A stretch of DNA of 51,739 bases from Candidatus Scatosoma sp. (GTDB lineage: Bacteria; Bacillota; Clostridia; Christensenellales; Borkfalkiaceae). Under the pieces are notes generated by a model. The model was not told the DNA's origin. It did no database searches and saw nothing but the letters and a program-made list of their open reading frames with translations. Of this stretch, positions 29,522 to 51,739 are shown one piece after another. The DNA lies in the NCBI GenBank assembly GCA_045534315.1, contig JAZSJN010000179.1, positions 1 to 51,739 of the forward strand. The letters are read 5' to 3'. Within the stretch, counting starts at the first letter, position 1, and each line of letters begins with the position of its first letter. A program made the position numbers and the translations under genes.

Positions 29522-29570
29522 ACGGAAACGTACCCCTTTGTGGTGCGTTCACTTTAGTTTCTATATTCTA

Positions 29571-29599: not shown

Positions 29600-29636
29600 G
29601 AGTGCGTTATAATATCCTAGGAAAAGGAGAAAGGTG

Positions 29637-31736: not shown

Positions 31737-31740
31737 ACGG

Positions 31741-31804: not shown

Positions 31805-31838
31805 ATATGCAAAGCAAAAAGAAAATAGGTGGCAGACT

Positions 31839-36178: not shown

Positions 36179-37063
36179 TTATTGAAAATGAATTTTTATT
36201 TGATAAGTTTTACTTGTTTTTGCTTTGATTTTTTGCATTTCAAAACGGTCGAAACGGGTGAGCGCGGGCTCGATCCCCAACGCGTAATCTCCGCTTTTCA
36301 TACTCTTCCATTGTAAGGTGACGGGGAAATCGGCTACGTCGTATTCCATGCCGATTGCGATGCCAAGATCGGGGTTGCAAAGACGGACGTTGCCTTGTGA
36401 AAGCGTGTGATAGTACACGTCTTCGTTGTTGCCGTCGATCGGCGGGGTGATCTTTAACATGTCCGCCTGACGCTTTTTGGCAATCTCGGTGAGGGGATCG
36501 CTCGCCGTTGCGGGAATATCCAATTGCAAACACTCGTCCAAAAACGGATAGCCGTAGTTGATATGGTACAACAGGACGTATTCGCTGTCTTGAAAGTCGG
36601 CGTTTTCTATGGTGTCGTTGATCTCTAACCCATTCGCCGTGATTTTATACGAGCGGTGCAAAACAAGATTTTTGCCAAACAGCGCGCTTTCTTTAATATC
36701 GCCGCAAACGTAGATTGCGCCGTCCTTTTCGTAATGGTAAGCATTTTCCGCTTTCGTGTAATGCAAACTGCCATGGACGGGCTTATCCGCCACGCATCCC
36801 GATACGTTGTCCATGCCGCACGTATATAAAAATCCGCCTTCGAAATTGCCCGTAAAGTCCCGTTTGCCGTCGTTTAAGCCGTTCTTACTTAAAAAGGACA
36901 GGTTTACTCCCTTGAAATTCGCCCAAACGATATCCAGAGCGTTGTCCTTGTTAAAAAGCAGTTCTAATCCGCCATGACGCACCAAAATGCAACGCTTATC
37001 CGCAATTTTGACGTCTTGCGCAAAGCAAATCTGTGCCTTATTTCCTATCTTTCTTTCGTCCAT
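36179..37063 (-). CDS. DUF4432 / aldose-1-epimerase-like (galactose-mutarotase fold) protein
   Basis: FEGGFLYTCGMDNVS......PVHGSLH and LLYHINYGYPFL match the DUF4432 mutarotase-like pattern. Start at ATG 37063 (AAAGGAAAACT upstream) rather than 37105. Confidence 0.6.
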   Translation of the reverse strand: MDERKIGNKAQICFAQDVKIADKRCILVRHGGLELLFNKDNALDIVWANFKGVNLSFLSKNGLNDGKRDFTGNFEGGFLYTCGMDNVSGCVADKPVHGSLHYTKAENAYHYEKDGAIYVCGDIKESALFGKNLVLHRSYKITANGLEINDTIENADFQDSEYVLLYHINYGYPFLDECLQLDIPATASDPLTEIAKKRQADMLKITPPIDGNNEDVYYHTLSQGNVRLCNPDLGIAIGMEYDVADFPVTLQWKSMKSGDYALGIEPALTRFDRFEMQKIKAKTSKTYQIKIHFQ

Positions 37064-37127
37064 AGTTTTCCTTTGTTGGCTCTCCCGCAGTGCGAAATGC
37101 CACACTTTTTTGTCAGTATAGCATGCT

Positions 37128-37200: not shown

Positions 37201-38031
37201 ATGGATATAAAATATAACAAAGAAAAGCTTGCGACGATTTTGGAAAACGTATACGAGTTGTTGCAAACGCCGATCAGCATTTTTGACAAGGATTTTCAAT
37301 TTTTAACGTCCTATCCACCCGAAGGGTATTTGACGGAATTTTGCCGAATGATCCGCCTTTCGCCCGAACGCATGGAAAAATGCCGACAATCGGATGAAGA
37401 GTCGTGCGCGCTTTGCAAAAAGACAAACCGTACCTTTTCCTATCTTTGCCATGCGGGCATACGGGAAACGATTACGCCCATTCGCTTTGAAAAGACGATT
37501 ATAGGATACATTTTGTTTGGGGAATACCGTATTGTAGGGACGGAAAAGGACGTCCGCGCCTATGCGGTGAAAAATGGTATTGACCCTGAAAAATTGCAAA
37601 ATGCCTATGAAAAATTGATTTTGCTTACCGAAAAGCAAGTAACGGCAACCTGTGAAATCTTACAATCGTGTATTTTGCAATTTTGGCTTTCCGAGGCAAT
37701 TTTACTCAAAGAAAACGACCTTGCGGAAAGGTTGAAAAAATTTATTGAAGAAAACCTAAACGAACCGTTAACGGCAGAAGATCTGTGCAAAAATTTCTTT
37801 TTAAACCGTCAGCAATTATATGCGATTTTTCGCGAGAGCTTTGCTGTGCCCGTTAAACAATACGTTTTAGAGCGGAAAATTGCGCGCGCAAAACACCTTT
37901 TGACCGCGACCAATCTTTCAGTAACGGCGGTTGCCGAGCAAACGGGTTTTGCCGATTACAATAATTTTATTCAACGTTTTAAAAAAATAACGGGGCTCAC
38001 CCCCCTGCAATATCGAAAGCGTAAACAGTAA
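37201..38031 (+). CDS. AraC-family regulator with N-terminal PocR sensory domain
   Basis: N-terminal PocR-like region with a Cys cluster (FCRMIR......C..SDE..C..C.......Y.CHAG). C-terminal AraC HTH (LSVTAVAEQTGFADYNNFIQRFKKITGLTPLQYRK). Confidence 0.75.
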   Translation: MDIKYNKEKLATILENVYELLQTPISIFDKDFQFLTSYPPEGYLTEFCRMIRLSPERMEKCRQSDEESCALCKKTNRTFSYLCHAGIRETITPIRFEKTIIGYILFGEYRIVGTEKDVRAYAVKNGIDPEKLQNAYEKLILLTEKQVTATCEILQSCILQFWLSEAILLKENDLAERLKKFIEENLNEPLTAEDLCKNFFLNRQQLYAIFRESFAVPVKQYVLERKIARAKHLLTATNLSVTAVAEQTGFADYNNFIQRFKKITGLTPLQYRKRKQ

Positions 38032-38083: not shown

Positions 38084-39004
38084 TTATTCGCCGTCGTGAT
38101 GCAGAACGGAGTTATTCTTTCTGTACTCGGCGGGGGTGATATTGAAATATTTTTTAAACAGGCTGTGGAAATGGCTGGGGGATTCGAAATTGAGTTCGTT
38201 TGTAATCTCCATCAAGGTCATATCCGTAAGCGAGAGCAAGTCTTTTGCGTATTGCAGCTTGGTGCGGTTGACATACTGCGTAATCGTACAATGCATGTGT
38301 TTTTTAAAGATACGCGTCAATTGCGGATAACTGTACGGCAGATCCTGCTGCGCCGCCTTGATCTGTTCGCTGGTGATCAGCGGATTGTTCAATTGCTGGA
38401 TCAGCGGCTTTAATATGGACGGAATACTCTGTCCCTTTTGCCATTGTTCGATAAATTTTAATAAAATCGTCGAGAAAATAATATTACATTGTTGTTCGGT
38501 GTACGGCGTGCTTTGGTCTTTCAAGGTTTGAATATCCAAAAACATATTTGTAAATTTTTCCAATGAGTTGGGGGAAAGAGAAAAGTACAAGGGCTGCGGC
38601 GTATTGCAGATTTCGTCGTACAACGTGGGCGAATACATATTAAGCAGCTCGCGTACGTAATGGTCTTGCGCGGCAATACAGATGGCTTGGTACTGATTTT
38701 TCACGCGGTTTGGATAGAAAAACGCGTGCTTATCTTTCGGACCGATAATGCATGCCATACCAGCCGTCATCATCTTTTCTTCGCCGTTGATGCGGTGTAA
38801 AATATGATCGCTGAGCACGATGGCAACTTCCCAATGTGTTTGTCCGTGGTACAGGGGGTATTCAAAGTTTACCCAATAAAAGGACGTGTTTGCATTTTTC
38901 CAAGGAGAACATTGCTCGAAGGTGCTGATCGAAGGACCTTCCGTTTCGGAAATGTGTCCGACGTAAGGATAAATTTTACTGTTCTTTTTTTCGTCCATAG
39001 TCAC
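38084..39004 (-). CDS. AraC-family transcriptional regulator (cupin-like N-terminal domain)
   Basis: C-terminal double HTH (YSYPQLTRIFKKHMHCTITQYVN ... MTLMEITNELNFESPSHFHSLFKKYFNITPAEYRK). Divergent from module B and the GH42-like/murQ/murK operon. Confidence 0.8.
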   Translation of the reverse strand: MTMDEKKNSKIYPYVGHISETEGPSISTFEQCSPWKNANTSFYWVNFEYPLYHGQTHWEVAIVLSDHILHRINGEEKMMTAGMACIIGPKDKHAFFYPNRVKNQYQAICIAAQDHYVRELLNMYSPTLYDEICNTPQPLYFSLSPNSLEKFTNMFLDIQTLKDQSTPYTEQQCNIIFSTILLKFIEQWQKGQSIPSILKPLIQQLNNPLITSEQIKAAQQDLPYSYPQLTRIFKKHMHCTITQYVNRTKLQYAKDLLSLTDMTLMEITNELNFESPSHFHSLFKKYFNITPAEYRKNNSVLHHDGE

Positions 39005-39260
39005 ATTATAACACTACAATCTTAAAATGTCAATACTATTTTTTGAGATTTTTGAGAACTGAATTTTTGATTTCCGATTGTAAAAAAAAAGTAAAAAACG
39101 CAAAAATATTTTTTTTGGTCGCAAAAAAACAACCCAAAAAAACGCCAAAAACCTTGAAAAGTCAAGCATTTTTGCATTTTTTTAATTTTATTTTTTTTGT
39201 AATTTTGGTAAAAAAGCAATTTTAATTTTTATGTAAAGAATAGCAACTTTTCCAAAAAAA

Positions 39261-39325
39261 TGCAATTTTAGAGCATATATTTGCAATTTAACAGTAATGA
39301 CAAAGGTAAAAATGTGTGTTAAAAT
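39261..39325 (+). promoter_or_regulatory. shared promoter/operator module, copy B
   Basis: TGCAATTTTAGAGCATATATTTGCAATTTAACAGTAATGACA-17 nt-TAAAAT. The first 30 nt are 29/30 identical to copy C. Confidence 0.7.
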
Positions 39326-39389
39326 GGATAATGTGGAAGTGTGCGCATTTTCCAAAAAATGGTAATTTTTATAAAAAATAGCAAAAATC

Positions 39390-41177
39390 ATGAAAGCAAA
39401 AGTTGTAAAATCGCAAGACAATTTAATGATTGAAGCGGACGGGGAACGGGTAGCCCCTGCGGCGTATATGTCTTATTTGGAAAACAACGCGGATTATAAG
39501 GGGTTTCAGTTGGCGGGGTACGATTTGTTTTGCGCTTGCGTGTATATGGGCGATTGCCCGATCAACGAATTTTCGGGGATTCGTCCGTTTAACGATCATA
39601 TTTGGAAAGCGCGGGATATTTACGATTTTTCCCCTTTGTATAACAGTGTAAAGAAGATTGTGGAAAGCGGCAGGCAAAAAACGTACGTCATGCTCCGCGT
39701 TAATCTCAATACGCCCCAATGGTGGCGCAGGGAAAATCCTGACGAGCTCACCGAAAACAGCGACGGTAACGTGTATATGCAGTCGGTATTTTCCGAAAAA
39801 TGGAAAGCGGACGCTAAGTTGTTTTTAGAAAAATTATATGCATATTTGCGCACGTTTACTTTCCAAGAAAACGTGATTGCAATACAGATTGCGGCGATGC
39901 AAACGGAAGAGTGGCTTGCTATGTGTACGGGGACGGGGGCTCTCGATTATTCTTTGCCAGCCAGAAAAGCGTTCGGACTTTGGCTGCAAGAAAAATACGG
40001 AAAGGCGTTTGATGAGATGCCCATGCCCGATAGAGAATACGCTTGCGCGCATGACCGCGCGCCCCTACAAGACGAAAGCAAGCGGCGGTATTTTGGCGAC
40101 TATATGCGGTTTTACGGCGAAGGTTTTGCGCGCGCGATTCAAGAATTTGCCGCGCATGCGAAAGGGTTAAACGGTGATCTGCTGGTCGGTACGTTTTACG
40201 GCTACGTAGGACAAACGTCGTGCGATCGCGGGCATCATGCAATTTCCACGTTGCTACGTGATCCTAATATCGATTTTTTTGCCTCGCCTTTTGCGTATGC
40301 GGACGCGCGTCAAACGGCAAAGGATTGGTATTATCACGGACCGATGGAAAGCGCGGCTTCGGCGGGGAAATTATGGTTTTTAGAAGCGGACGTACGCACT
40401 TATAAAACGAAATATCTCGCCGATACCAATCCCGAATTGATGTCGGACGAGCAGACGGTGCAATATCACCGCGCGCCCGTTTTTAAAGGGCCTGATACCG
40501 AAAAGGAAAGCCTTTGGGTAATGCTCCGTTCTTTTGCAAAAGTGCTTTGTTCCAAAAATGCGTTTTGGTGGTTTGATATGTGGGGCGGTAGGTATGACTC
40601 GCCTGCCATGATGGACCTTGTGAAACGGGTGTTAGATACGTACCGTGTCGCGTTCAATGCAAAAATGGCGAATGTGTGTAAGCTTGCGGTAGTGCTGGAC
40701 GAACGGGCGTATGAGGAACGTTCTAACTTGTATCACTACGATACGACGGTAAAACAGTTGGAAGAGCTTGGTTATCTCGGCGCGCCGTATGATTTGTACT
40801 TGGCGGGGGGTATAAACGACGAGCAAAAGAAAAAATACGCAGCGATTTTATATATTGCCGATCAAAATTCGCCCAGCAAGGGGAATACGTTGATTTTGCA
40901 AAACGGTGGGCGTGTGGAAACAGAAAACATGTTTGCGGCGGCGGAGATCGGCAACTATTTGCAAGGCGTGGGCGTGCATATTTACAGCGGCGGAAATATT
41001 GTATATGCCAACTCTAAATTTGTTGCAGTTACGGCAAAGGTGGGGGGACGTGTCGAGATGAAACTGCCTTTCTCGTGTAAAATCAAGGCGTTTACGGACG
41101 GAAAAGAATATCAAGGCAAGGACTTTGTTTTCGATATGGAAAGCAACCAGACGGAATTATTTGAAGTTATGGGGTAG
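39390..41177 (+). CDS. distant GH42-like / clan GH-A TIM-barrel protein, function unknown
   Basis: 595 aa. LRVNLNTPQWW...NPDEL, IQIAAMQTEEW at the position of the NEx acid/base strand, and LPARKAFGLWLQEKYG (the F..WL...Y motif of GH42). No convincing RBS, so the start is uncertain. Confidence 0.5.
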   Translation: MKAKVVKSQDNLMIEADGERVAPAAYMSYLENNADYKGFQLAGYDLFCACVYMGDCPINEFSGIRPFNDHIWKARDIYDFSPLYNSVKKIVESGRQKTYVMLRVNLNTPQWWRRENPDELTENSDGNVYMQSVFSEKWKADAKLFLEKLYAYLRTFTFQENVIAIQIAAMQTEEWLAMCTGTGALDYSLPARKAFGLWLQEKYGKAFDEMPMPDREYACAHDRAPLQDESKRRYFGDYMRFYGEGFARAIQEFAAHAKGLNGDLLVGTFYGYVGQTSCDRGHHAISTLLRDPNIDFFASPFAYADARQTAKDWYYHGPMESAASAGKLWFLEADVRTYKTKYLADTNPELMSDEQTVQYHRAPVFKGPDTEKESLWVMLRSFAKVLCSKNAFWWFDMWGGRYDSPAMMDLVKRVLDTYRVAFNAKMANVCKLAVVLDERAYEERSNLYHYDTTVKQLEELGYLGAPYDLYLAGGINDEQKKKYAAILYIADQNSPSKGNTLILQNGGRVETENMFAAAEIGNYLQGVGVHIYSGGNIVYANSKFVAVTAKVGGRVEMKLPFSCKIKAFTDGKEYQGKDFVFDMESNQTELFEVMG

Positions 41178-41181
41178 AATT

Positions 41182-41988
41182 ATGAAAAATACCGAACAGA
41201 GAAATCCAAATACGATGGATTTAGATAAGATGACGGCGTTGGAAGCTGTAACCGCAATGAATAATGAAGATAAAACGGTGGCGTATGCCGTGGAAAGGGC
41301 TTTGCCTGAGATTGCGCAGGCGGTGGAACTTGTGGTGGACAGTTTTCAAAAGGGCGGCCGCTTGATCTACGTCGGCGCGGGTACGTCCGGTCGTTTAGGG
41401 GTGTTGGACGCAAGTGAATGTCCTCCGACGTTCGGCGTTCCGTACGAACAGGTGATCGGCGTGATTGCAGGGGGGCGTGACGCGGTGTTCAAGGCGGCGG
41501 AAGGAGCGGAAGACAGCGGTGAGTACGGTGTTCGCGATATGAAAAACGTCGCGGTGTCGGAGAAAGACACGGTGGTAGGGATCTCTGTTTCGGGCGACGC
41601 GTCGTACATTTACGAATCTCTGAAATATGCGCGGGAGCTTGGCGCGCACACGGTTGCGCTGTCGGGAAATCCTATAAATCGCATTTCTCAGCAAGCGGAA
41701 ATCACGATTGTAACGGACACGGGTGCGGAAGCGTTGACGGGTTCTACCCGTTTAAAGGCGGGCACAGCGCACAAAATGGTACTGAATATGCTCTCGACGG
41801 TGGCAATGGTACGTACGGGCAAAGTTATTGAAAATCTGATGGTGAACGTCGCGCCGACAAATATCAAGCTGTTCGACCGCGCGGCGCGTATTTGCGATAC
41901 GTTGACGGGTATGGGCGTAGATGCGGCGAAAGCGGAACTTTCCAAAGGTCGTACGATCGTGGAGATTGTAGGAGATTACGAAAAATGA
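41182..41988 (+). CDS. murQ: N-acetylmuramic acid-6-phosphate etherase
   Basis: TEQRNPNTMDLD, GGRLIYVGAGTSGRLGVLDASECPPTFGV, GAEDS, GSTRLKAGTAHK..LNM.ST, and ENLMVNV.PTNIKL.DRA. Start at ATG 41182, 5 nt after the upstream stop. Confidence 0.88.
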   Translation: MKNTEQRNPNTMDLDKMTALEAVTAMNNEDKTVAYAVERALPEIAQAVELVVDSFQKGGRLIYVGAGTSGRLGVLDASECPPTFGVPYEQVIGVIAGGRDAVFKAAEGAEDSGEYGVRDMKNVAVSEKDTVVGISVSGDASYIYESLKYARELGAHTVALSGNPINRISQQAEITIVTDTGAEALTGSTRLKAGTAHKMVLNMLSTVAMVRTGKVIENLMVNVAPTNIKLFDRAARICDTLTGMGVDAAKAELSKGRTIVEIVGDYEK

Positions 41989-42902
41989 GATATTATCTGG
42001 GCGTGGACGGCGGCGGCACGAAAACGGAAGGGGTCGTCGTTACCGAAACGGGCGAAGTCGTACAAAGAGCGCTGGTGGGGAGTTCTAATCCAAACGACGT
42101 TGGCAGGGAAAACATGATTGAACTGCTCTGCGCGTTTGTGCGGGATTTAACGCCTGTGGATGCGAATCGGATGGACGTGTGTATGGGCTTGTCGGGCCTG
42201 GGATTTGCTGGGTGCAAAGACGAGCTGATTGCCGCGCTGAAAACTGTGGATAAGGTCGGGAACGTCAGCGTTTGCAGCGACGTGCAAATCGCTTTGGACT
42301 CCGCTTACGACGGGGATGGTTGTATTGCGATTACGGGCACGGGTAGCGTAGGGTATCTGCGTAAAAACGGCGAGCATATCTTGGTCGGTGGCGGCGGATA
42401 TATGATCGATTCGTCTTTTAGCGGGTACGATTTAGGCAGCGAAGCGTTGAACGCGGCGCTTTCGGAGACGGACGGCAGGGGCGAAGAAACGCAAATTACG
42501 GCGTTGGTTTTGAACCGTGCGGGCGCGTCTATGAACGAAATTGTGAAAACGGTGTACCTAAAAGGCAAGGCGTACGTGGCGTCCTTTGCGCCCGTTCTTT
42601 TCGAAGCTTACGAACGGGGGGATGTGGTTGCCGAAGAAATTTTAAAACGTCGCATGGCGGAATTGGAAACGTTGCTTTTAGGGGTTTATAAAAGATACGG
42701 TCAGCGGCAATGTGAAATTACGTTGTTTGGCGGGTTAAACCGTCGCGTGATAGAATTTTCGCGTTTTCTCAGCGCGAAATTGCACGAAAAAATAACGATT
42801 GGCTTGCCGAAATATCCCGTCGTGTACGGGGCTTTGAAAGGGGCGCGCGGTGGTGGCGACGAGAAATTTTTGACGGCATTTTTGGAAAGCTACTGTGTGT
42901 AA
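41985..42902 (+). CDS. BadF-type sugar kinase (MurNAc/GlcNAc kinase, MurK-like)
   Basis: YYLGVDGGGTKTE phosphate-1 motif, ITGTGS, GGGG.MIDSSFSGYDLG. ATGA overlap with the murQ stop indicates coupling. Start at ATG 41985, not 41892. Confidence 0.75.
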   Translation: MRYYLGVDGGGTKTEGVVVTETGEVVQRALVGSSNPNDVGRENMIELLCAFVRDLTPVDANRMDVCMGLSGLGFAGCKDELIAALKTVDKVGNVSVCSDVQIALDSAYDGDGCIAITGTGSVGYLRKNGEHILVGGGGYMIDSSFSGYDLGSEALNAALSETDGRGEETQITALVLNRAGASMNEIVKTVYLKGKAYVASFAPVLFEAYERGDVVAEEILKRRMAELETLLLGVYKRYGQRQCEITLFGGLNRRVIEFSRFLSAKLHEKITIGLPKYPVVYGALKGARGGGDEKFLTAFLESYCV

Positions 42903-42955
42903 AATTGCCGCAAAATAAACGATAACCGTTTAAGACGGTTTAAAAAAGATGAAAA

Positions 42956-42994
42956 ATCGGTGCGTTAGGAAACGTGCCGATTTTTTGTTGTTTT
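42956..42994 (+). terminator. intrinsic terminator after the murQ-kinase operon
   Basis: ATCGGTGCGT / taggaa / ACGTGCCGAT (10 bp including two G-U pairs) followed by TTTTTTGTTGTTTT. Confidence 0.65.
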
Positions 42995-43127
42995 AAGGCG
43001 GTCGGTAAGGGCGAGAAAAAACTCCTTTTTATCTATTGATAAAAAAGTCGAGCCTTTTTTGATGATAAATGATCCTTTCAAAAAGTTTGTTGATTTTTTC
43101 CAAAACTTGTAAAAAGCGCGTCGAAAA

Positions 43128-43192
43128 TGCAATTTTAGAGCATATTTTTGCAATTTATATATAATGACAAGGGGGCAATTCCGTGATATAAT
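43128..43192 (+). promoter_or_regulatory. shared promoter/operator module, copy C
   Basis: TGCAATTTTAGAGCATATTTTTGCAATTTATATATAATGACA-17 nt-TATAAT, preceded by TG. Confidence 0.7.
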
Positions 43193-43270
43193 GTAACCAC
43201 TAAGCGGAAATACGTTCACAAAATAAAGTGAAACGCCGCTATTTTGGCGTTTATTTAGCGCGCATGTAAT

Positions 43271-43306
43271 GCGTGCGGGTGCGCATAAGCGTGCGGGTGC
43301 GCATAA
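43271..43306 (+). repeat. perfect 18-bp tandem duplication (GCGTGCGGGTGCGCATAA x2) inside the ~235-nt leader of the DUF4434/ABC operon
   Basis: Units 43271-43288 and 43289-43306 are identical. Each contains the self-complementary TGCGCA. Confidence 0.9.
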
Positions 43307-43430
43307 AGAGTTGCTCGCTAACAGAAGAACGCGTAATTTTACCAAGAAAACAATGTTTTCGCGCATGTTTGCCCTATTCATAGTGTGAAAGGCGTGATCA
43401 CATAAATAATATAATAGGAGTTCGAAAGAA

Positions 43431-44339
43431 ATGATAGTGAAGTACCCGATAACGGGCACGTTTATCGATGAAATCACGTATGACATTCCGGCGTCCAACT
43501 GGACGAACGAGCAATGGGCTGCCGATCTCGACCATATGAAAGCGGTGGGGATTGATACGGTGGTAATCATGCGCGGTGTTTTCTACGATAAATGTGTCTA
43601 TCCTTCTAAAATTTTTCCGACCTTAAAGGAAGAAGGGGAAGATTTTGCGGGATTTATCATGGAAGAGGCTGCCAAACGGGACATGCAGGTATTTTTGGGA
43701 ATGTACATAAAAGACCTGACTTGGAACTACGGCGATTACCTGTACGAGCTGAAACAAAACAAGCTGTATATGGACGAAGTGTTGGCTCGGTACAAAGACA
43801 TGCCTGCGTTTAAAGGGTGGTACATACCCCACGAAACGGGCAGTAACATTTACAACGTCAAAGAAACGATGGGTGGGCTTGCCGCTATGTGCAAGGACAG
43901 GACACCCGACAAGAAAGTGTTTATCAGTCCGTTCTTCCGTGGGCAGAATCAGCATCCCGATCCGATGTCGCCCGAACTGACGGCGGACGTGTGGAACAAC
44001 ATTTGGAAAGACTGCGGCAAAGATATTGACATCTGCGCTTTCCAGGACGGCACGGTGCGGCTGTGCAATTACGGCGAATATTTGAAAGCGATTAAGGAAG
44101 TAACGGACGCGCATAAGATCAGCCTTTGGGCAAACGTAGAAACTTTTGAACGCGACGTTCGTTCCATGTTCTATCCGATCTCGTTCGATATTTTGCGCAG
44201 AAAGATACAGATTGCGCAGCAATACGTAGAAAAGTGTATAACCTTTGAGTTTTCACATTTCTTAAGTCCGCAATCGATATTCCCTTCCGCTCGGAATTTG
44301 AACACGCTGTATCGTAATTATTACGAAAATAAAAAATAA
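43431..44339 (+). CDS. DUF4434-family protein (glycoside-hydrolase-like TIM barrel)
   Basis: ITGTFID.I..DI...NW....W..D...M...GIDTV.I......D..VYPS and F.GWYIPHE match my memory of the DUF4434 N-terminal pattern. RBS AGGAG. Confidence 0.6.
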   Translation: MIVKYPITGTFIDEITYDIPASNWTNEQWAADLDHMKAVGIDTVVIMRGVFYDKCVYPSKIFPTLKEEGEDFAGFIMEEAAKRDMQVFLGMYIKDLTWNYGDYLYELKQNKLYMDEVLARYKDMPAFKGWYIPHETGSNIYNVKETMGGLAAMCKDRTPDKKVFISPFFRGQNQHPDPMSPELTADVWNNIWKDCGKDIDICAFQDGTVRLCNYGEYLKAIKEVTDAHKISLWANVETFERDVRSMFYPISFDILRRKIQIAQQYVEKCITFEFSHFLSPQSIFPSARNLNTLYRNYYENKK

Positions 44340-44478
44340 AAGCTGCGATAAGCAGTAAAAGAAATTCGCGTAAAAAAACGGCGCGAAACAACCCCACGAG
44401 CGGGTGTTTATTGAGAAATAAAAAACAAAAAACTTTAAAAGAAAAACAAAAAAATTATATTATATGAGGAAAAATGCT

Positions 44479-46347
44479 ATGAAAAAAATCAAAAAGTTGT
44501 TGGTTAGCGCAATTGCACTGATGATGGCGTTCAGCACGGTAGCGTGCGGTGGTGGCGGCGGTGGTAACACCGGTGCGTCGAGTAGTTCGCAAGGCGGCGG
44601 CTCGTCCGTTGAAGAAAGCAGCTCGCAAGGCGGCGGTGCGTCTTCGGAAGAAGAAAGCAACTCGCAGGGTGGCGGTACTTCTTCGGGAGAGGAAGAAAAC
44701 GATTACGTACCGAAGAAACCCTATCAGTTGAACGTATTCAGTTTCAGCGGCGGTTACGGTAGAGCATGGTACGATGCATTGGCGAAGCGTTATGAAAAGG
44801 AACGCGCAGGCGACAAGATCGTAGTGAACGGAATCGAATACGACGGCGTAGACGTATCCACGAAATTTACGGGTACGAAAGACGTTATGTCGAGTATGAC
44901 GAATTCGGGCGCAAAATACGACGTGTGGTTCCAGGAACAGGTTTACTATAACCAAATTGTGAAGGCAAACAATATGTTCGCAGATATGACGGACGTTTTG
45001 ACCGAAACGAACCCTTACGAAACGGATAAGACGCTTGAAAGCAAGATGACGCCAGAACAGCAAGATTATTATCTGAGAGACGGTAAATATTATGGTATTC
45101 CTCACTATGCAGGTTACGTAGGTATCGTCTACAATAAGGCGTTGTTTGAAACGTTGAATCTGTACCTTGCAGACGGTTACGATAAAGAAGATTTAGCAAA
45201 CGATCCCGGGATGTGTTTTGTTTGGGACGCAACTGAAAAGCGTACGGCAGGTCCCGATGGTAAGTATGGCACGAACGACGACGGTTTGCCTACGACGTAC
45301 GCGGAATTCTACGCGCTTTGCGACGTAGTGAAACAGAGTAGTTTGAAACCCGTTGCTTGGGCAGGTAAATATAGACAGGAATATTTGAACTGGTTCATGA
45401 CGGCGCTGTCCGGAAACCACGAAGGGTTGGAACAGGCGTCCTTGAACTATTCGTTCGACGGTACGGCAACGAACTTGATCTCCGTAACGGAAGACGCAGA
45501 TGGTAACGTAACGGAAACGCCGATTGAAGACGTTGAACTCGACGCAAAGAATAACGGTTATAAATTGGCTAGTCAGCGCGGTAAATATTATGCACTTGCC
45601 TTCTTGGAAACGCTTGTAGATAGAGAATGGACGACGAAATCTTCCTTCTCCGGTACGCAGGAACAGACCAAGACGCAGCAGGAATTCGTTGAAGGTAACA
45701 TCAGTGATCCTACCGAACGTGCAGCGATGATGATTGAAGGTTGCTGGTGGGAAATGGAAGTTGCAAACTCCTTCTTGGCTCTTGAACAAGCAGGCGCTAA
45801 AAACCCCAAAGACAACTTCGCATGGATGCCGTTGCCTGCAATTGATGAAGAAGCGGCGGCTGTAAGAGCGGAAAAATTGCAAAACGGCGGCAAGGGTTAT
45901 ACCTTGACGGATACGCACAACTCGCTCTGCTTTATCGGTAAGCACCTTGAAAGCAACCCTGAAGTTTATGCGATTGCGAAGGATTTCGTACAGTTCGCAT
46001 ATACGGATGAATCCCTTGCTGAATTCTCGATCATTACCGACACGACGAAAGCGGTACAATACACAATGACGGACGCTCAAAAAGCGCAGATGTCCGCATA
46101 CGGTAGATCGCTTATGACGATGCAGGAACAGGCAGACATCGTATACACCTTCTCTAAAGGGCAGTTCTATCAAGATAACGAAGCAAAACTTGCCGAATAC
46201 AAAAAGGCGTTCAGTGCAAGATATACGGCGGATGGTAATGCGGTAGATATTGCTGTTGACGAATTTAGAAAGGGTGTAAGCGCGGTAACCTACTTCAACG
46301 TTTTGTACAACAATCAGAAATTTAAGTGGGATTATGAAATTATATAA
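44479..46347 (+). CDS. ABC-transporter extracellular solute-binding lipoprotein (large LplA-type SBP)
   Basis: Signal peptide plus lipobox (MKKIKKLLVSAIALMMAFSTVA-C), a G/S/E linker, and a ~560-aa SBP body. Start at ATG 44479 (GAGGA 8 nt upstream). Followed by two permease genes. Confidence 0.8.
   Translation: MKKIKKLLVSAIALMMAFSTVACGGGGGGNTGASSSSQGGGSSVEESSSQGGGASSEEESNSQGGGTSSGEEENDYVPKKPYQLNVFSFSGGYGRAWYDALAKRYEKERAGDKIVVNGIEYDGVDVSTKFTGTKDVMSSMTNSGAKYDVWFQEQVYYNQIVKANNMFADMTDVLTETNPYETDKTLESKMTPEQQDYYLRDGKYYGIPHYAGYVGIVYNKALFETLNLYLADGYDKEDLANDPGMCFVWDATEKRTAGPDGKYGTNDDGLPTTYAEFYALCDVVKQSSLKPVAWAGKYRQEYLNWFMTALSGNHEGLEQASLNYSFDGTATNLISVTEDADGNVTETPIEDVELDAKNNGYKLASQRGKYYALAFLETLVDREWTTKSSFSGTQEQTKTQQEFVEGNISDPTERAAMMIEGCWWEMEVANSFLALEQAGAKNPKDNFAWMPLPAIDEEAAAVRAEKLQNGGKGYTLTDTHNSLCFIGKHLESNPEVYAIAKDFVQFAYTDESLAEFSIITDTTKAVQYTMTDAQKAQMSAYGRSLMTMQEQADIVYTFSKGQFYQDNEAKLAEYKKAFSARYTADGNAVDIAVDEFRKGVSAVTYFNVLYNNQKFKWDYEII
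44584..44700 (+). repeat. three in-frame imperfect tandem repeats (36/39/42 nt) encoding (S/N)SQGGG-x-SS-x-EEE linker units
   Basis: SSQGGGSSVEES / SSQGGGASSEEES / NSQGGGTSSGEEEN immediately after the lipobox Cys-Gly6 stretch. Confidence 0.85.
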
Positions 46348-46412
46348 GCCGCGTCACGCGAGTTATATATAAGGAAAGGTTTGTTTTTTAAATGAAATTC
46401 CAATAAAAACAT

Positions 46413-46445
46413 CTGCGGAACTCCGCATCAAGCGGAGTTCTGCGG
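46413..46445 (+). promoter_or_regulatory. intercistronic stem-loop between the SBP and permease genes
   Basis: CTGCGGAACTCCGC / atcaa / GCGGAGTTCTGCGG (14 bp including two G-U pairs). No T-tract follows; the RBS of the permease gene begins 4 nt later. Confidence 0.5.
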
Positions 46446-46459
46446 GATAAGGAAAAATT

Positions 46460-47398
46460 ATGAACGAAATAAAACAAAAAAGAATAAAACCGAAGATCGA
46501 TAAAGGGGATATGATCTTTTATTGCGTCTTTTTGGCTTGGCCGGTGTTGCAGTTCTGTGTTTATTACATTGGGGTAAACTTCAATTCGATTTTGATGTCT
46601 TTCAAATGGTTTGATACGGATACCCGTGAAATGTCTTACAGTTTCAAGCAATACGGCGAAATTTTTAAATGGATGGGAACGGACGAGTTTAAAAGCTTGC
46701 TTACGGTTTCGTTAAAATCCTTTTTAATTACTACTGTAATATCCGTACCGCTCGGCTTGCTTTTTGCGTATTACATATTCAAAAAATTGCCTGCTTGGGG
46801 CGCATTCCGAGTAATACTCTTCTTGCCGAAGATTATTTCGGGCGTTGTAATCGCTTTGATTTTCCGTTGGTTTTTGGAAGAATACGTACCGTTTATCCTT
46901 CCCAGCGTAGGGAATTTGTTGGATACGGGGGGAAAATTGGAAAAGAATATATTCCCCGTTTTGATGTTCTATAATATCTGGGTTGGCTTTGGTACGACCG
47001 TCTTGATGTATTCCAACAAAATGTCGAGTATTTCCGATGAAATTATTGAATCGGCGCATTTGGACGGTGCGACGGGCTTTAAAGAATTTTGGTATATCGT
47101 ATTGCCGCTTACCTATTCGACGCTCTCCGTATTCTTGATTACGGGCGTTGCGACGGTATTCGTCGGTCAGTTCGGTGCGTATGAATTCTATCCTTTCGGT
47201 ACGCCGGCTGAGATTAAGAGTATCGGTTATTACTTCTTCGTAAACGTAAAAGGTGCGTTCGCAAATATCGTAGACCCGCAAAACACGGCAGCGATTTACA
47301 AATATGCGGCGTTGGGTATCATTTTGACGTTTATTACGATTCCGGTTGCGTTTACCATTCGTTGGGCGTTGGAAAAATTTGGACCTAGTGAAGATTGA
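46460..47398 (+). CDS. ABC sugar-transporter permease (MalF/LplB-like)
   Basis: Six hydrophobic segments and an EAA loop, IESAHLDGATGFKEFWYIVLP. Confidence 0.85.
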   Translation: MNEIKQKRIKPKIDKGDMIFYCVFLAWPVLQFCVYYIGVNFNSILMSFKWFDTDTREMSYSFKQYGEIFKWMGTDEFKSLLTVSLKSFLITTVISVPLGLLFAYYIFKKLPAWGAFRVILFLPKIISGVVIALIFRWFLEEYVPFILPSVGNLLDTGGKLEKNIFPVLMFYNIWVGFGTTVLMYSNKMSSISDEIIESAHLDGATGFKEFWYIVLPLTYSTLSVFLITGVATVFVGQFGAYEFYPFGTPAEIKSIGYYFFVNVKGAFANIVDPQNTAAIYKYAALGIILTFITIPVAFTIRWALEKFGPSED

Positions 47399-47412
47399 GA
47401 AGGAGGAAAAAG

Positions 47413-48555
47413 ATGGCTAAAAAAATCAAAGAAAAGAAAGAATCCTTCTCGCCGCTCACGATCATTTTGTTGATCATCTTGATCTTGTATTGTATCTCGT
47501 TCTTCTATTTATTGTTGTGGGGCGTATCTGCATCCTTGAAGATCGACAGTAACTTTTTCGAATGGCAGCAGGATAAACTGTTCAGTAATTATGGGAAATT
47601 CGACAATCATTTGATGGGCATGAAAGCTGCGCGTGAAGCGGAATATCTCCAACTGAAAGAATTGTATGATACGCTTGGTAGAGATATGGGGCGCGATAAA
47701 TACAATCAGATGTTATTGTTAAAAGACGAGGTTTACGGCAAGTTCGACAGCAACGGAATATTGATAGATCCGTCGCCCTGGGATACCGCATTAACGAAGT
47801 ATAGTTCGCAAAAGCAAGAAATGAAAGTTTTCCTGCCCTTCTATGCGTATAAAAACGTTTTCCAAGAATACGAAATTATGATTACGAAAACGCGAGAAGT
47901 CGTCGGCATGTGGGAAATGTACGGAAACAGTATTATGTATGCAGGCGGTTGTGCGTTGGCGGCAACGTTCGTGCCTTGTATCACGGCGTACGCGTGCGCG
48001 CGTTTCAATTATAAATTCTCGCGCATTATACACACGACGGTTATCGTCGTCATGATGATCCCCATCGTCGGTAGTATGCCTTCGGAAATCAAGATTGCGC
48101 AAGCCACGGGGGTTTACGATAAATTCTACGGCTTATGGGTAATGAGAGCAAACTTCTTAGGGCTGTATTTCCTTGTGTTCTACGACATTTGCAAGGCGTT
48201 GCCGACGTCTTTCTCGGAGGCAGCGAAGATGGACGGCGCAAACAACTTCCAGATATTCTTTAAGATTGCAATGCCGTTGATCAAAAATACGTTCTTTACG
48301 ATATTGTTGATCCGCTTTATCGAATTCTGGAACGAATATCAGGCGCCTATGGTATACACCCCCAGTTTCCCCACGATTGCAATAGGCTTGAACAACATGA
48401 TGGGTAAAAACTCTGACTCGATCAAATTTGATACGACGATGATTCCTTCAAGAATGGCGGCGGCGGTACTGACGGCAGCGCCCGTATGCATACTGTTCGC
48501 ATGTTTCCAAAAACGACTGCTTGGCAATCTTACGATGGGCGGCGTGAAAGGTTAA
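47413..48555 (+). CDS. ABC sugar-transporter permease (MalG/LplC-like) with ~110-aa extracytoplasmic insertion after TM1
   Basis: EAA loop SEAAKMDGANNFQIFFKIAMP. Start at ATG 47413 after GGAGG. A long hydrophilic loop (aa ~45-160) lies between TM1 and TM2. Confidence 0.8.
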   Translation: MAKKIKEKKESFSPLTIILLIILILYCISFFYLLLWGVSASLKIDSNFFEWQQDKLFSNYGKFDNHLMGMKAAREAEYLQLKELYDTLGRDMGRDKYNQMLLLKDEVYGKFDSNGILIDPSPWDTALTKYSSQKQEMKVFLPFYAYKNVFQEYEIMITKTREVVGMWEMYGNSIMYAGGCALAATFVPCITAYACARFNYKFSRIIHTTVIVVMMIPIVGSMPSEIKIAQATGVYDKFYGLWVMRANFLGLYFLVFYDICKALPTSFSEAAKMDGANNFQIFFKIAMPLIKNTFFTILLIRFIEFWNEYQAPMVYTPSFPTIAIGLNNMMGKNSDSIKFDTTMIPSRMAAAVLTAAPVCILFACFQKRLLGNLTMGGVKG

Positions 48556-48600
48556 TAAAGGTTAATAAAATTTAGTAAATAAAATAAGGAGAAAAATAAG

Positions 48601-51570
48601 ATGAAAAGAATGAAAAAATTTCTTATCGCCTCCATGTGCGTAGCTGCAATAGGCGCGATCGCTGCACCTATTACGGGCGCAGTGTTATCCGGTAAAGCAG
48701 CGGATACGCCGACGTGGGAAGAGATCAATCTTGAAACGTCGTACGTACGTGACGATACGCTTAGCATTCCTGATCGTTCCATTTCGATCAACGGCAACGC
48801 GTATGACGCTACGATCAGATTGGTATATCCGGACGGTAAGAAGTCGATTGTGGAGAGCGGGGATATGGCGTTGACGCAACCCGGTCAGTACACGTTGATT
48901 TACGAGGCAAAAGACGATTCGTCCGTACTTTATACAGACGAAATCCCTTTCTTGGTTGCGGATAAGCTCTGGAGTACGAGTAACCCTAAGAGTTCGATCG
49001 AATACGGCAAAGTAGGTTCGACGAACGCGCTCATGGTAAAACTTGCTAAAAACGACGTATTGAGCTTTAATAGAATTATCGATTTGTCCGATTTGACTTT
49101 GGACGATACGTTGATCAGGGCGTTTATCAATCCCGAGATTGTTGGTACGTACGAATTCGATAAGCTCGTATTCACATTTACGGACGTTACCGATCCCACG
49201 CAGACGTTGACGATCCGCGGAAACAGAAGTTCCACCAACAACCAAAGATTTGCAAGTTATTGGACGAGCGCTGGCCCTGAACAGACGCTTGGCGGTTGGG
49301 ACCCGAACGCAGGATATTTCTCTAATTACGTAACCGACGGTATCCGCGGTAGACACGCAATGAACGCGTCGTTCTATTCGCAAGTTGGTGCGTACGGTTC
49401 GCAATATGTCGGCGGTTGTACGCATTGGGACGAGACGGCAGATAAATGCTCGTTTAAGATAACGTACGACACGAACGACGTAAAAACGTATATTAACGAT
49501 ACGTGGATCGCTGATCACGACAACGGCGAATATTATGAAAAAGAACCGTTGTGGCGTGGTTTCCCTAGCAATAAAGTGCTCTTGACGGTAGAAGCGGCAG
49601 ATTGCGTAGGTGAAGCGGCAAACTTCTGTATTTCCGAATTGTACGGCTATGATTTCACGCAGGAAAACGTTTTTGTGGAACAGGATGCTCCCGAGATCAA
49701 GGTAGACGTGGACGAAAAATACGTTTCGGTTCAAAACGGAAATAACGTTATGATCCCTACCGCAGTAAAGGGCGGTTATTATCCCGTACCTACGGCAAGC
49801 GCGTTCGACGCTTATTCGGGCGAAGTGAAAGTAGAAAGAAAGGTATACCATAACTATATCAGCGAAACGAACAGAAAGGAACGTCCGATCAAGAACGACA
49901 CGTTCTTGGTTAGAGAAACGGGGGACTATACGATCGTATATACCGCAACGGACGCTATGGGGAATACAAGCGAAGTCCTTTATAAGGTGACTGCGGTTAA
50001 AGAATTGAAAAATCCTTTGGCGATTACCGTTGATTCTGCAAATGCGAAAATCAGCGGCGTATGCGGCGAAAAGATTACCGTAGCAGATTACGAGGCTACG
50101 GGCGGTAGCGGAGACGTAAACGTAACCGTCACGGCAAGTTGTGGCGATACGACGTTGGACGTAACGAAGGGCTATTTCATTCCCGAACAGGCAGGCGAAT
50201 GGACGGTAACGTACGAAGCAAAGGACTACGCGGGTATTGAAGAAACTACTTCGTATACGGTAAACGTTGAATTTGGCACAGAGCCCATCTTCGTTGAAGA
50301 TCCTTTCCTTCCTAAATATATTATATCGGACATTCCATATACCGTTCCTGTTGTAAAGGCAAACGATTATTCGACGGGTACGAAAGTGGAATGCGTAGCG
50401 GATATGGTATTGAAAGACGCAAACGGTGAAACTTCCTATAAGGCAGGCGAATCGTTTACGCCCGTTGTCAATGAAGAAAACCCCGTAGTAACCTTAATCT
50501 TTAAGGTGGGCGAAGCGGAATACGTTAAAGAAATTCCCGCGATTATTGCGTTGAAGAAAAACGGCAGCAGAAGTTCGGTTTATATCGATAAGATGTTTAT
50601 CGGCGATAATTTTGAAGCGGAAAGAACGCAGAACGGGTTGAAGATGACGGCGCAAGAAGATGGCAACACCAATTGGATGTTCGCAAACGCTCTCGTTGCA
50701 AGAAATTCGTCGATAACGGTCAAAGGTATTAAAGGTAGCAGTATTTTCAGCGCAATGAAAGTAACGTTTACCGATTATATGGACGAAAAGATTGCAGTAA
50801 CGATGTATATCGAAAATCAGAAAAACGGCTTAGCAAGAGTAAACTTCGGCGATTTGAACCGTGAACTTAATAAAGGGTTTAATCTCGGTAGTGATGAAAG
50901 CGGTAACGCATTGGACGAATTTACGTTCAGCTATAAGCTTGACAAATTCTACGTAGACAGCTTGGCGGTTAACGTGACGACGGACGACAATGGTAACGCG
51001 TTTAACGGTTTCCCTTCGGGCAGAGTTTATATCAGCATGGAAACGGAAAACGTGACCAGCGGTTCTTGCTATTTCATCAAGCAATTTGATAATCACGTAA
51101 TGACGATGTCTACGGCGGATAGAACGCAACCCAGAGTTGCTATTACGGGCAACTACGGCGGTATGCATTTGATCAACAGTACGTATACGATTACGCCTGC
51201 GCTAGCAAGTGATACGATCGACGCAACCGTTTCCGCAACCGTTACGGTAAAGACGCCTACGGGCGAGATCGTATCGGACGTAAACGGCTTGGCGTTGGAA
51301 AACGTACCTGGTAACCAAAATTACCAAATCAAACTGACGCAATACGGTCAATATATCGTAGAATACGTGGCAGTTGACTGTACGTCCGCTAAGGGTACGG
51401 CTTCTTATGCAATCAACGTATTTGACAAAAAGTTGCCGCAGGCAACGTTGGAAACGACTTGGTCGAATACTGCAAAGGTAGGAGACACAGTTGTTCTTCC
51501 CGAAATCTACGTTTCCGATGACGCTTCGTCGATAGAAGAGATGAAGGTATTTAGATACGTACGTAATCCC
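48601..51570 (+). CDS. secreted multidomain surface protein with repeated Ig-like (HYR-like) and jelly-roll-like modules; 3' partial
   Basis: Signal peptide MKRMKKFLIASMCVAAIGAIAAP. Recurrent G.Y.(L/V/I).Y.A.D motifs (GQYTLIYEAKD, GDYTIVYTATDAMGN, GEWTVTYEAKDYAG, GQYIVEYVAVD) alternate with two ~250-aa beta-rich blocks. The ORF-track stop at 51594 lies inside adapter sequence, so the real gene continues beyond the contig. Confidence 0.7.
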
Positions 51571-51654
51571 AAGTCGGAGGCCAAGCGGTCTTAGGAAGAC
51601 AATACTAATGGCCAACTCCTTGGCTCACAGAACGACATGGCTACGATCCGACTT
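51571..51654. other. MGI/BGISEQ (DNBSEQ) library adapter: forward adapter + 10-nt barcode + reverse complement of the read-2 adapter
   Basis: 51571-51602 is AAGTCGGAGGCCAAGCGGTCTTAGGAAGACAA (exact). 51603-51612 is TACTAATGGC (index). 51613-51654 is CAACTCCTTGGCTCACAGAACGACATGGCTACGATCCGACTT, the exact reverse complement of AAGTCGGATCGTAGCCATGTCGTTCTGTGAGCCAAGGAGTTG. Confidence 0.95.
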
Positions 51655-51739
51655 CACAGTTGTTCTTCCCGAAATCTACGCTTCCGATGACGCTTCGTCG
51701 ATAGAAGAGATGAAGGTATTTAGATACGTACGTAATCCC
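51655..51739 (+). repeat. artefactual second copy of 51486-51570 (read-through around a circularised short insert)
   Basis: 84/85 identical to 51486-51570 (T at 51512 versus C at 51681), offset 169 nt = 85-nt insert + 84-nt adapter. Confidence 0.9.

Follow-up and report, generated by a model that had tools for sequence, protein, structure and literature searches.

Few routes are known by which the N-acetylmuramic acid 6-phosphate (MurNAc-6-P) etherase MurQ is fed. One of them runs through AnmK, acting after import by AmpG. In Escherichia coli, Bacillus subtilis and Staphylococcus aureus, MurQ is supplied by the phosphotransferase system (PTS) transporter MurP (PMC5061867), and in Tannerella forsythia by the permease MurT together with the kinase MurK (PMC5790795, PMC10465942). 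A precedent for the entry of peptidoglycan fragments by an ATP-binding cassette (ABC) transporter is YejBEF-YepA of Agrobacterium tumefaciens (PMC9790009), and a 2024 review of muropeptide transporters includes no carbohydrate-type ABC route. Here we analyse a locus at positions 39390-51570 of a 51,739-nt stretch of DNA from Candidatus Scatosoma sp. (the window, by which we mean the whole stretch), in which an operon for MurQ and a sugar kinase shares an operator with an operon for an ABC importer.

Our preferred reading, on which our judgement is evenly divided, is that the locus is an AraC-activated regulon for the uptake and catabolism of a MurNAc-containing amino-sugar glycan, most likely the wall debris of other bacteria. 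The comparison with described systems suggests that what is new is the supply route, and the glycosidase partner, of an otherwise known MurK-MurQ catabolism. The first operon comprises the following features.

39390-41177, plus strand: predicted cytoplasmic glycosidase of clan GH-A, related to glycoside hydrolase (GH) family 42, 595 aa (fold, family profile)
41182-41988, plus strand: MurQ, MurNAc-6-P etherase, 268 aa, with a short C-terminal lid (TIGR00274)
41985-42902, plus strand: BadF/NagK-type sugar kinase, MurK-like (Pfam BcrAD_BadFG, PF01869, 107 bits, residues 5-283)
42950-42990, plus strand: terminator-like hairpin and T-run between the two operons (read from the sequence)

An earlier reading of this DNA, made from the sequence alone (the sequence-only reading), had called the second of these genes a clear MurQ etherase, and the call is borne out. 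The protein scores 341.5 bits against the TIGR00274 equivalog model (cutoff 302), 352.6 bits against NF003915 (cutoff 168) and 351.8 bits against NF009222 (cutoff 255). Identity to two solved MurQs, 4S12 and 4LZJ, is 55-56%, about what these two share between themselves (56%), and this lies within the range between validated orthologs, the Streptomyces coelicolor and E. coli enzymes being 54% identical (PMC5061867). Residues E79, E107, E110 and D111 are invariant across the window MurQ, six copies from related loci, the NanE fusion described below and the two solved MurQs; they sit in the DASEC and EGAED (E-x-x-E-D) motifs. The acids of these motifs reportedly hold the catalytic pair (Hadi et al. 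2008). The full-length C-terminal lid is missing, all MurQ copies at these loci being 266-270 aa long against 298-306 aa. On the window protein the GKRP-like_C model matches at its positions 1-38 of 100 only, under the cutoff, and the alignment to 4S12 stops at residue 260 of 298. From these comparisons, the substrate of the window MurQ is very probably MurNAc-6-P.

The terminal etherase is thus that of the MurP-MurQ pathway, in which MurNAc or MurNAc-GlcNAc is taken up by the PTS, and the expected products, N-acetylglucosamine 6-phosphate (GlcNAc-6-P) and D-lactate, are the same. The window differs from that pathway in having an AraC-type regulator instead of MurR/RpiR, in lacking AmiE, NagZ, NamZ and MupG, and in the shortened lid of its MurQ. 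It also contains no PTS domain in any main open reading frame (ORF) of at least 150 aa, in line with what had been read from the sequence, and phosphorylation would therefore fall to a separate kinase. Neither a PTS EIIBC component nor a single-component MurNAc permease was found in the window or the syntenic loci, and MurT-like proteins, NamZ and MupG are absent from the window's main ORFs.

The candidate kinase is encoded directly after MurQ. The MurQ stop codon overlaps the kinase start as ATGA, the coupling noted in the sequence-only reading, and the upstream 595-aa ORF ends 4 nt before the MurQ start. The kinase N-terminus is MRYYLGVDGGGTKTEG, and the phosphate-binding DGGGT motif of the BcrAD_BadFG/ASKHA fold is present. 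Its best match in the PDB, moderate but full length, is 8ZO3 (E = 1.6e-26), which is labelled 'MurNAc/GlcNAc kinase', while against the NagK equivalog NF046058 it scores 103 bits, far under the cutoff of 370. A MurK-like assignment is, on these matches, plausible. The arrangement resembles MurT-MurK-MurQ of T. forsythia and MurK of Clostridium acetobutylicum in being independent of the PTS and in encoding kinase and etherase side by side. However, uptake here would depend on a binding protein and an ABC transporter rather than a single-component permease, and the operon includes a cytoplasmic GH42-like glycosidase, implying import of a glycoside and not of free MurNAc. The hairpin beyond the kinase gene has only sub-threshold sRNA- or terminator-like Rfam matches, and a rule-based scanner made no call.

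The 595-aa protein had been described as a distant GH42-like TIM barrel, a label that is correct as judged by its predicted structure and family profile. As a single sequence it has no Pfam match at E <= 0.01 and no NCBIfam match, and a search of the PDB gave nothing useful. Its relatives at about 40% identity carry the GH42 model PF02449. The family is large (2,622 cluster representatives at E <= 1e-30), and a profile built from it reaches GH42 structures at only ~2e-9, over ~150 residues. In the AlphaFold model (pLDDT 94.3) a TIM barrel precedes a domain of trimerisation type and a beta domain, and barrel strands 4 and 7 are each followed by a Glu. The top Foldseek matches are all GH42/GH35 structures (TMq 0.56-0.63, 9-12% identity): GH42 beta-galactosidases, GH42 alpha-L-arabinopyranosidases and a GH35-related glucosyltransferase, the beta-1,2-glucosyltransferase of Ignavibacterium album. 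With these the protein shares its overall architecture, the Glu after strand 4 and a Glu ending strand 7. An invariant TEEW of the family aligns with the GH42 NEYG motif, such that E174 matches the GH42 acid/base Glu and E173 replaces the Asn of the NE motif; T172-E173-E174 is invariant in 39/39 aligned family members. The invariant E332 ends a predicted strand (328-333), at the position of the clan GH-A nucleophile.

Because both the PF02449 model and the NE motif failed, we have not filed the protein as GH42, and it does not appear to be a member of GH42 proper. It differs from the GH42 beta-galactosidases and alpha-L-arabinopyranosidases in its EE for NE and low identity, and its gene partners are MurQ and a kinase, not galactose or arabinose genes. 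The EE motif was considered as a mark of MurNAc specificity and rejected, since it is invariant throughout the family, including clades that are never linked to MurQ. The step that we propose for the protein, the release of MurNAc or MurNAc-6-P toward MurQ from a chain end or a disaccharide, is that of the exo-muramidase NamZ in B. subtilis and T. forsythia and of the 6-phospho-muramidase MupG in S. aureus. NamZ we take to be GH171 (DUF1343) and MupG GH170 (DUF871). The folds and families are unrelated, the window protein being, by its model, a clan GH-A TIM barrel of GH42-type architecture.

This operon is tied to the importer by a common regulatory sequence, with an adjacent regulator gene. 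The sequence-only reading had reported one 64-bp operator/promoter module at three transcription units, and we recover it as a 70-bp module with three copies in the window.

43124-43193, plus strand: operator/promoter copy 3, upstream of the DUF4434 gene (ATGACA, 17 nt, TG-n-TATAAT)
39257-39326, plus strand: operator/promoter copy 2, upstream of the GH42-like gene (TGCAATTT-N13-TGCAATTT, ATGACA as the -35, 17 nt, TG-n-TAAAAT)
31737-31806, plus strand: operator/promoter copy 1, the most diverged, upstream of a GH43/GH117-like gene (pattern with 3 mismatches)
38084-39004, minus strand: regulator of the AraC family, 306 aa, transcribed divergently from the GH42-like operon (Pfam HTH_18, HTH_AraC)

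Allowing up to 3 mismatches, we find three copies of its 30-nt core ATGCAATTTTAGAGCATATWTTTGCAATTT in the window and none in 100 shuffles. Two direct TGCAATTT repeats, with starts 21 bp apart, abut an ATGACA -35-like hexamer, which is followed after 17 nt by an extended -10 (TG-n-TATAAT or TAAAAT); a rule-based promoter scan independently chose the same -35 and -10 hexamers. The layout is that of an AraC-type activator site overlapping the -35 (class II), with the AraC gene divergent and adjacent. That gene has its own 12/12 sigma-70-type promoter (39033-39005), the best NCBIfam matches of its product include AraC, RhaS and ChbR, and its orthologs occupy the equivalent position in L001, L004 and L090 (we number in this way the related genome contexts fetched for comparison). 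This regulator is likely to bind the TGCAAT module.

The module is kept upstream of the orthologous genes in L001, L010, L004, L011, L012 and L013, that is, down to 55% identity of the GH42-like protein, so that the proposed link of etherase and kinase to the ABC importer operon holds at conserved positions. It also precedes a GH2 gene in L094, and a DUF4434 gene in L090, where MurQ is absent. Because of its presence in L090, the AraC/operator pair seems to belong to the DUF4434 side, the GH42-like, MurQ and kinase genes (the MurQ trio) having been recruited later. A TGCAAT-N15-TGCAAT at position 1323 in L012 is unlike the module in context and was taken as a chance match. The DUF4434 operon has a 5' leader of ~240 nt (43194-43430) with a tandem GCGTGCGGGTGCGCATAA repeat. 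No Rfam model matched this leader near its gathering score and its fold is not significant (z = -1.35), on which grounds a riboswitch or other known RNA was rejected.

The second operon encodes the following proteins.

43431-44339, plus strand: DUF4434 TIM-barrel glycosidase-like protein, cytoplasmic (Pfam, 178 bits)
44464-46347, plus strand: lipoprotein substrate-binding protein (SBP), 627 aa, with a Gly/Ser-rich tether (signal peptide, lipobox)
46460-47398, plus strand: ABC permease 1 (Pfam BPD_transp_1, transmembrane-like segments)
47395-48555, plus strand: ABC permease 2, MalG/UgpE-like (Pfam BPD_transp_1)
48601-51570, plus strand: giant secreted multi-domain beta-sandwich protein, truncated (signal peptide, all-beta model)

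This map, obtained from the ORF listing and family scans, agrees with that of the sequence-only reading. The two permeases are of MalF/MalG type, with MalG, UgpE and GlcT/GlcU as their best NCBIfam matches, and permease 2 has a ~145-aa extracytoplasmic loop between its first two transmembrane segments; their earlier designation as ABC permeases stands, while its 'LplABC-type' label was not verifiable with family models. An ATPase subunit (ABC_tran) is absent from every annotated ORF of the window. ABC ATPases that are encoded elsewhere and are common to several importers are frequent in Firmicutes, and the ATPase of this importer is presumably encoded outside the locus. The lipobox of the SBP reads ...STVAC|GGGG, and the Gly/Ser/Glu-rich tether is encoded by three imperfect 39-nt tandem repeats (44557-44670). 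No Pfam SBP model matches the protein and a PDB sequence search gave nothing useful; there are weak N-terminal matches to TIGR03850 and to the chitobiose SBP NgcE (1e-9 to 1e-10), and its homolog in L093 has a weak SBP_bac_8 match. YejBEF-YepA is reportedly peptide/Opp-like and serves own-wall recycling in a Gram-negative; here, in contrast, the permeases are MalFG/UgpAE-like, the SBP is a large lipoprotein, and the locus is rich in glycosidase-like genes, would be inducible and belongs to a Gram-positive lineage.

By hydropathy and N-terminal sequence, neither the DUF4434 protein nor the GH42-like protein has a signal peptide. The best PDB match of the DUF4434 protein is 4H41 (3e-54), labelled 'putative alpha-L-fucosidase'; our search of the literature found no activity data for 4H41 and no functional study of DUF4434 (PF14488). 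In L092 (8069-9909) two tandem DUF4434 genes lie near a SASA-family (sialate O-acetylesterase-like) gene. This context is unrelated to MurQ and shows that several different sugar pathways make use of the DUF4434 family.

The giant protein had been read as a secreted protein of alternating Ig-like and jelly-roll-like modules. That it is secreted and all-beta is upheld, the model being a chain of beta-sandwich domains (pLDDT 88.9). Only G, D, F, P and Y residues are invariant in it, and the PDB sequence search gave nothing useful. Fold searches returned only generic multi-Ig proteins at TM < 0.2 (adhesins, S-layer proteins and alpha-2-macroglobulin-like proteins), with no catalytic fold recognised, and therefore no catalytic assignment is possible. 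It is probably a surface glycan-binding or scaffold protein. The end of its gene, which the sequence-only reading had placed at 51570, coincides exactly with the junction to adapter-like sequence.

51571-51739: assembly artefact, made up of an adapter-like part (51571-51654) and then a second read of 51486-51570 at 99% identity

Past 51570 the sequence runs AAGTCGGAGGCCAAGCGGTCTTAGGAAGACAA ... CAACTCCTTGGCTCACAGAACGACATGGCTACGATCCGACTT, which we take to be BGI/MGI sequencing adapters, and then repeats 51486-51570. As the adapter-like sequence holds the stop codon at 51592-51594, this stop appears to be false and non-genomic. A public-assembly homolog of the giant protein, P0121, is 99% identical, has 1048 aa and diverges from the window ORF beyond residue 990. 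Thus the gene appears truncated in the window, and the real protein would have 1048 aa.

The closest relatives of the locus are from Candidatus Scatosoma sp. and 'Clostridia bacterium', in gut metagenomes of chicken, ruminant, deer, horse and human (Hadza). The genome of the window is not itself in the collection that was searched, as an exact-sequence look-up of its DUF4434 protein gave no match. Synteny is full in L001, L010, L011 and L012, and the gene order is kept also in L004 and L013. Among the loci fetched, the GH42-like, MurQ and kinase genes are adjacent in 10 distinct genome contexts, with the GH42-like protein at 37-77% identity and in two gene orders. In L008 the trio is followed by a gene for an HTH::GlmM protein (TIGR01455, 501 bits, cutoff 448), a GlmU-C-like acetyltransferase gene and a NagB-family gene, an arrangement that by analogy resembles an E. 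coli-type route from MurNAc to UDP-GlcNAc. In the same locus (8045-13738) the BadF kinase and GlmM each have an N-terminal HTH_3 (Xre-type) domain, and these fusions of enzyme and regulator flank the MurQ and GH42-like genes. The claim that gene order is conserved among relatives therefore stands, but a single indivisible system does not. L005 has the MurQ trio alone. Without MurQ, L093 has an AraC gene divergent from genes for DUF4434, an AGE-like N-acylglucosamine 2-epimerase, GH127, an SBP, two permeases and a giant protein, and L090 has a GHL6-unk396-DUF4432 operon with an AraC gene, divergent from DUF4434 and GH127 genes and without a transporter. The locus thus consists of separable modules that are joined and co-regulated in one narrow clade.

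The genes beyond the end of the contig can be seen in a syntenic genome. Past the giant gene, L094 (13144-23132) encodes a 727-aa DUF4838 lipoprotein without an NCBIfam match, a 1692-aa Big_2 lipoprotein and a cytoplasmic GH2, the last with its own copy of the TGCAAT operator and a beta-mannosidase-type Ig domain; the genome of the window probably has these three genes as well. GH163 (BT1035, an endo-beta-GlcNAcase) and GH185 (Sp_0475, a 6-sulfo-beta-GlcNAcase) have DUF4838 as their catalytic domain; these are GH20-like enzymes with substrate-assisted catalysis, and both characterised DUF4838 lineages are beta-GlcNAcases (PMC10570127). Such catalysis would suit a 2-acetamido sugar such as MurNAc. 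The DUF4838 gene of L094 directly follows the giant gene, and DUF4838 or DUF4838-like genes adjoin giant-like genes in L006/L007, L014, L016, L018 and L021.

Across the loci, enzymes of N-acetylhexosamine (HexNAc) metabolism turn up repeatedly. Besides MurQ and the MurK/NagK-like kinase they include DUF4838, the AGE-like epimerase, GlmM together with a GlmU-like protein and NagB, the NanE::MurQ fusion of the window and, in L018, a GNAT whose gene lies between those for kinase and MurQ. Because of this recurrence, a bacterial HexNAc glycan with MurNAc among its sugars is the probable target, MurNAc being confined to bacteria. In the mechanism that we propose, the AraC regulator would act on the two TGCAAT direct repeats abutting the -35 and turn on all units together. 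The giant beta-sandwich protein, the DUF4838 protein of beta-N-acetylhexosaminidase type and the Big_2 lipoprotein would capture and trim the polymer at the surface, and the lipoprotein SBP and two permeases would import unphosphorylated oligosaccharides. These would be dismantled in the cytoplasm by the DUF4434, GH42-like and GH43/GH117-like proteins (and GH2 in the relative), the GH42-like enzyme, as the companion of MurQ and kinase, freeing MurNAc from the imported glycoside. The MurK-like kinase would then form MurNAc-6-P, and probably also GlcNAc-6-P, and MurQ would convert MurNAc-6-P to GlcNAc-6-P and D-lactate. Of this scheme, the analysis itself establishes which genes and folds are present, that operator and gene order are conserved, and that the locus is modular; we infer the ligand, what each glycosidase-like protein does, the binding role of the giant protein and the direction of regulation.

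Several results count against this scheme. The locus has no MurNAc-L-Ala amidase, NagZ, NamZ, MupG, NagA or peptidase, and its SBP matches no ligand-informative model. The transporter block (DUF4434 to the giant gene) and the MurQ trio each occur without the other. The expected co-occurrence of murQ and a BadF kinase with DUF4434 is found in the closest relatives only, L004, where the GH42-like protein is 55% identical, having GH127 in place of DUF4434. DUF4838 and GH2 are known from the syntenic genome only, because the window ends inside the giant gene. The MurQ operons of L016 and L018 include GH106-like, GH78-like and GH28 genes, esterases, and an enolase-superfamily dehydratase with a short-chain dehydrogenase/reductase (SDR). 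Lastly, GH42-like orthologs that are 62-66% identical to one another occur with MurQ (L016) and without it (L014, L021). As the EE motif is also invariant beyond the MurQ-linked clades, the GH42-like enzyme is not demonstrably MurNAc-specific; in one clade at ~31% identity, most members of which are labelled Acutalibacteraceae, no link to MurQ occurs.

In L016 and L018 the genes after MurQ were considered as NagA and NagB, an assignment rejected in favour of the dehydratase and SDR. Between these two loci (L016 15447-17380, L018 14170-16103) the MR_MLE dehydratase is 95% and the SDR 92% identical, against 86% for MurQ and only 50% for the GH42-like protein, which suggests either strong constraint on the MurQ-dehydratase-SDR segment or its recent transfer.

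Upstream of the main operons, the window has several further genes.

31839-32870, plus strand: GH43/GH117-like five-bladed beta-propeller glycosidase-like protein, no signal peptide (Pfam GH43, 1e-10)
32950-34980, minus strand: GHL6-type TIM-barrel glycosidase-like protein with a GH42M domain (Pfam GHL6, Glyco_hydro_42M), last gene of the divergent operon
34977-36170, minus strand: 397-aa protein, the most conserved gene of the region (no Pfam or NCBIfam match)
36179-37105, minus strand: DUF4432 protein (Pfam DUF4432, 167.6 bits)
37201-38031, plus strand: PocR-sensor AraC-family regulator (Pfam PocR, HTH_18, HTH_AraC)

The nearest solved relatives of the first of these are GH117 3,6-anhydro-alpha-L-galactosidases, at a weak 4e-8. 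Its gene has a 94% identical copy in L012 and is absent from L001, and we regard it as an accessory member of the regulon. The GHL6-type gene is conserved in L001, L004, L015 and L090. For the 397-aa protein the one lead is a weak match (E = 0.006) to the PMI-like cupin 1ZX5, which is a putative mannose-phosphate isomerase. The copies of the 397-aa protein share 91-98% identity at loci where the GH42-like protein is 51-77% and the neighbours are 51-90% identical, which is unusual for an unannotated protein. The DUF4432 family we take to have a mutarotase-like fold. Further upstream (27032-31736), a gene for an HTH_3::ADP-ribosylglycohydrolase fusion of 527 aa is followed by genes for a PfkB kinase and a GH78 rhamnosidase; a gene of the ADP-ribosylglycohydrolase family also lies directly 3' of the GH42-like gene in L006 and L007.

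At its other end the window has a second MurQ cassette (165-5593, minus strand), overlooked in the sequence-only reading and provided with its own, different promoter.

4655-5593, minus strand: AraC regulator of the second cassette
3629-4531, minus strand: BadF-type kinase of the second cassette
2119-3624, minus strand: NanE::MurQ fusion, 501 aa
165-2105, minus strand: 646-aa protein of the second cassette (PDB search: nothing useful)

With the main MurQ, the MurQ part of this fusion shares 48% identity; its TIGR00274 score, 273 bits, falls short of the cutoff of 302. We know of no description of a fusion of this type. As NanE is a ManNAc-6-P epimerase (ManNAc, N-acetylmannosamine), its union with an etherase suggests that the substrate is a lactyl amino sugar in the manno configuration. 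The 646-aa protein was considered as a GH42-like or GH127-like paralog and rejected (BLASTP E = 4 and E = 0.07).

As the proposed MurNAc glycan, plain peptidoglycan fits poorly, because there is no amidase or peptidase and because L016 and L018 carry rhamnosidase-like, GH28 and sugar-acid genes. Gram-positive wall debris, with strands still bearing the linkage units of wall polysaccharides, would fit these facts and the recurrence of HexNAc enzymes alike, a suggestion that we offer as speculation. Taken to its fullest form, which we put forward tentatively and would not expect to hold in every part, the preferred reading makes the locus a Gram-positive-type polysaccharide utilisation locus for the walls of other bacteria, the GH42-like protein founding a family of cytoplasmic exo-beta-N-acetylmuramidases and the NanE::MurQ cassette handling the ManNAc part. 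The captured strands might then possibly carry ManNAc-GlcNAc-P-MurNAc or Rha-GlcNAc-P-MurNAc linkage units, the DUF4838, giant and Big_2 proteins would cut them, and the carbohydrate-type ABC transporter would import unphosphorylated MurNAc oligosaccharides.

A different account, which we find doubtful, is that two independent functions have a common regulator: the transporter block would harvest a glycan free of MurNAc, such as N-glycan-like or plant HexNAc/mannose glycans, while the trio salvages MurNAc from the turnover of the cell's own wall, or MurNAc glycosides entering by another transporter. The separability of the modules in L005, L093 and L090 speaks for it, as does the operator in L090 in the absence of any MurQ. 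The founding GH163 enzyme, moreover, acts on N-glycans (PMC10570127). The beta-mannosidase-type Ig domain of the L094 GH2 points the same way, and the AGE-like epimerase and PMI-like cupin would suit the metabolism of ManNAc or of mannose. However, both units stand behind one and the same operator in at least 5 related genomes, which implies one inducer, and the trio stays beside the transporter block from 77% to 55% identity. Furthermore, the presence of a cytoplasmic glycosidase within the MurQ operon implies that the MurNAc arrives as an imported glycoside rather than in free form.

We consider it unlikely that the substrate is a bacterial polysaccharide other than peptidoglycan (capsule, exopolysaccharide, O-antigen or wall polysaccharide) with lactyl-ether (carboxyethyl) sugars and also rhamnose or uronic acid, on which MurQ would act at the level of MurNAc-6-P or a related 3-O-lactyl hexos(amin)e-6-P. 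The sequence-only reading had leaned on the neighbouring GH78 gene for a lactyl-ether exopolysaccharide. This support is weak, because the gene forms a separate unit without the operator; it is also absent from L004 and L012. Yet rhamnosidase-like genes do recur beside MurQ, in L016 (GH106-like, GH78-like) and in L019, which has a homolog of the L016 GH78-like gene. The GH28, esterase and sugar-acid dehydratase/SDR genes in the MurQ operons of L016 and L018 would fit such a polymer, the highly variable gene content of these loci is what variable bacterial surface glycans would lead one to expect, and the second etherase, being a NanE fusion, points to a lactyl amino sugar in the manno configuration. 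On the other side, validated MurNAc-6-P etherases resemble the window MurQ no less than they resemble one another, and our literature search found no link between MurQ homologs and other carboxyethyl sugars.

That MurQ-like protein and kinase have a new function, with the same elimination-hydration chemistry turned on some other 3-O-substituted sugar phosphate (a 3-O-methyl or 3-O-glycosyl hexose-6-P derived from glycans of plants or algae, for instance), is highly improbable: the shortened lid, the plant-type enzymes nearby (GH28, GH78, GH106-like, GH127, GH43/117-like) and the low score of the kinase against the NagK equivalog would suit it, but MurQ passes its curated equivalog threshold, has ortholog-range identity to solved MurQs and in L008 adjoins GlmM, a GlmU-like gene and NagB.

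The sequence-only reading held that this architecture had not been described, and we found no description of it in a full-text literature search, subscription journals lying outside its coverage. If the MurNAc-glycan reading is right, MurNAc would gain, beside MurP, MurT and AmpG/Yej, a supply route of carbohydrate type that depends on a binding protein, and a first function could be given to the family of the 595-aa protein and perhaps also to DUF4434. For finding the inducer, the conserved operator with its neighbouring AraC gene provides a direct way in by experiment. The pool of peptidoglycan in the gut is large and immunologically active, being a source of NOD1 and NOD2 ligands, and the uncultured Clostridia of bird, ruminant and human guts that carry this locus would be consumers of bacterial cell-wall material.

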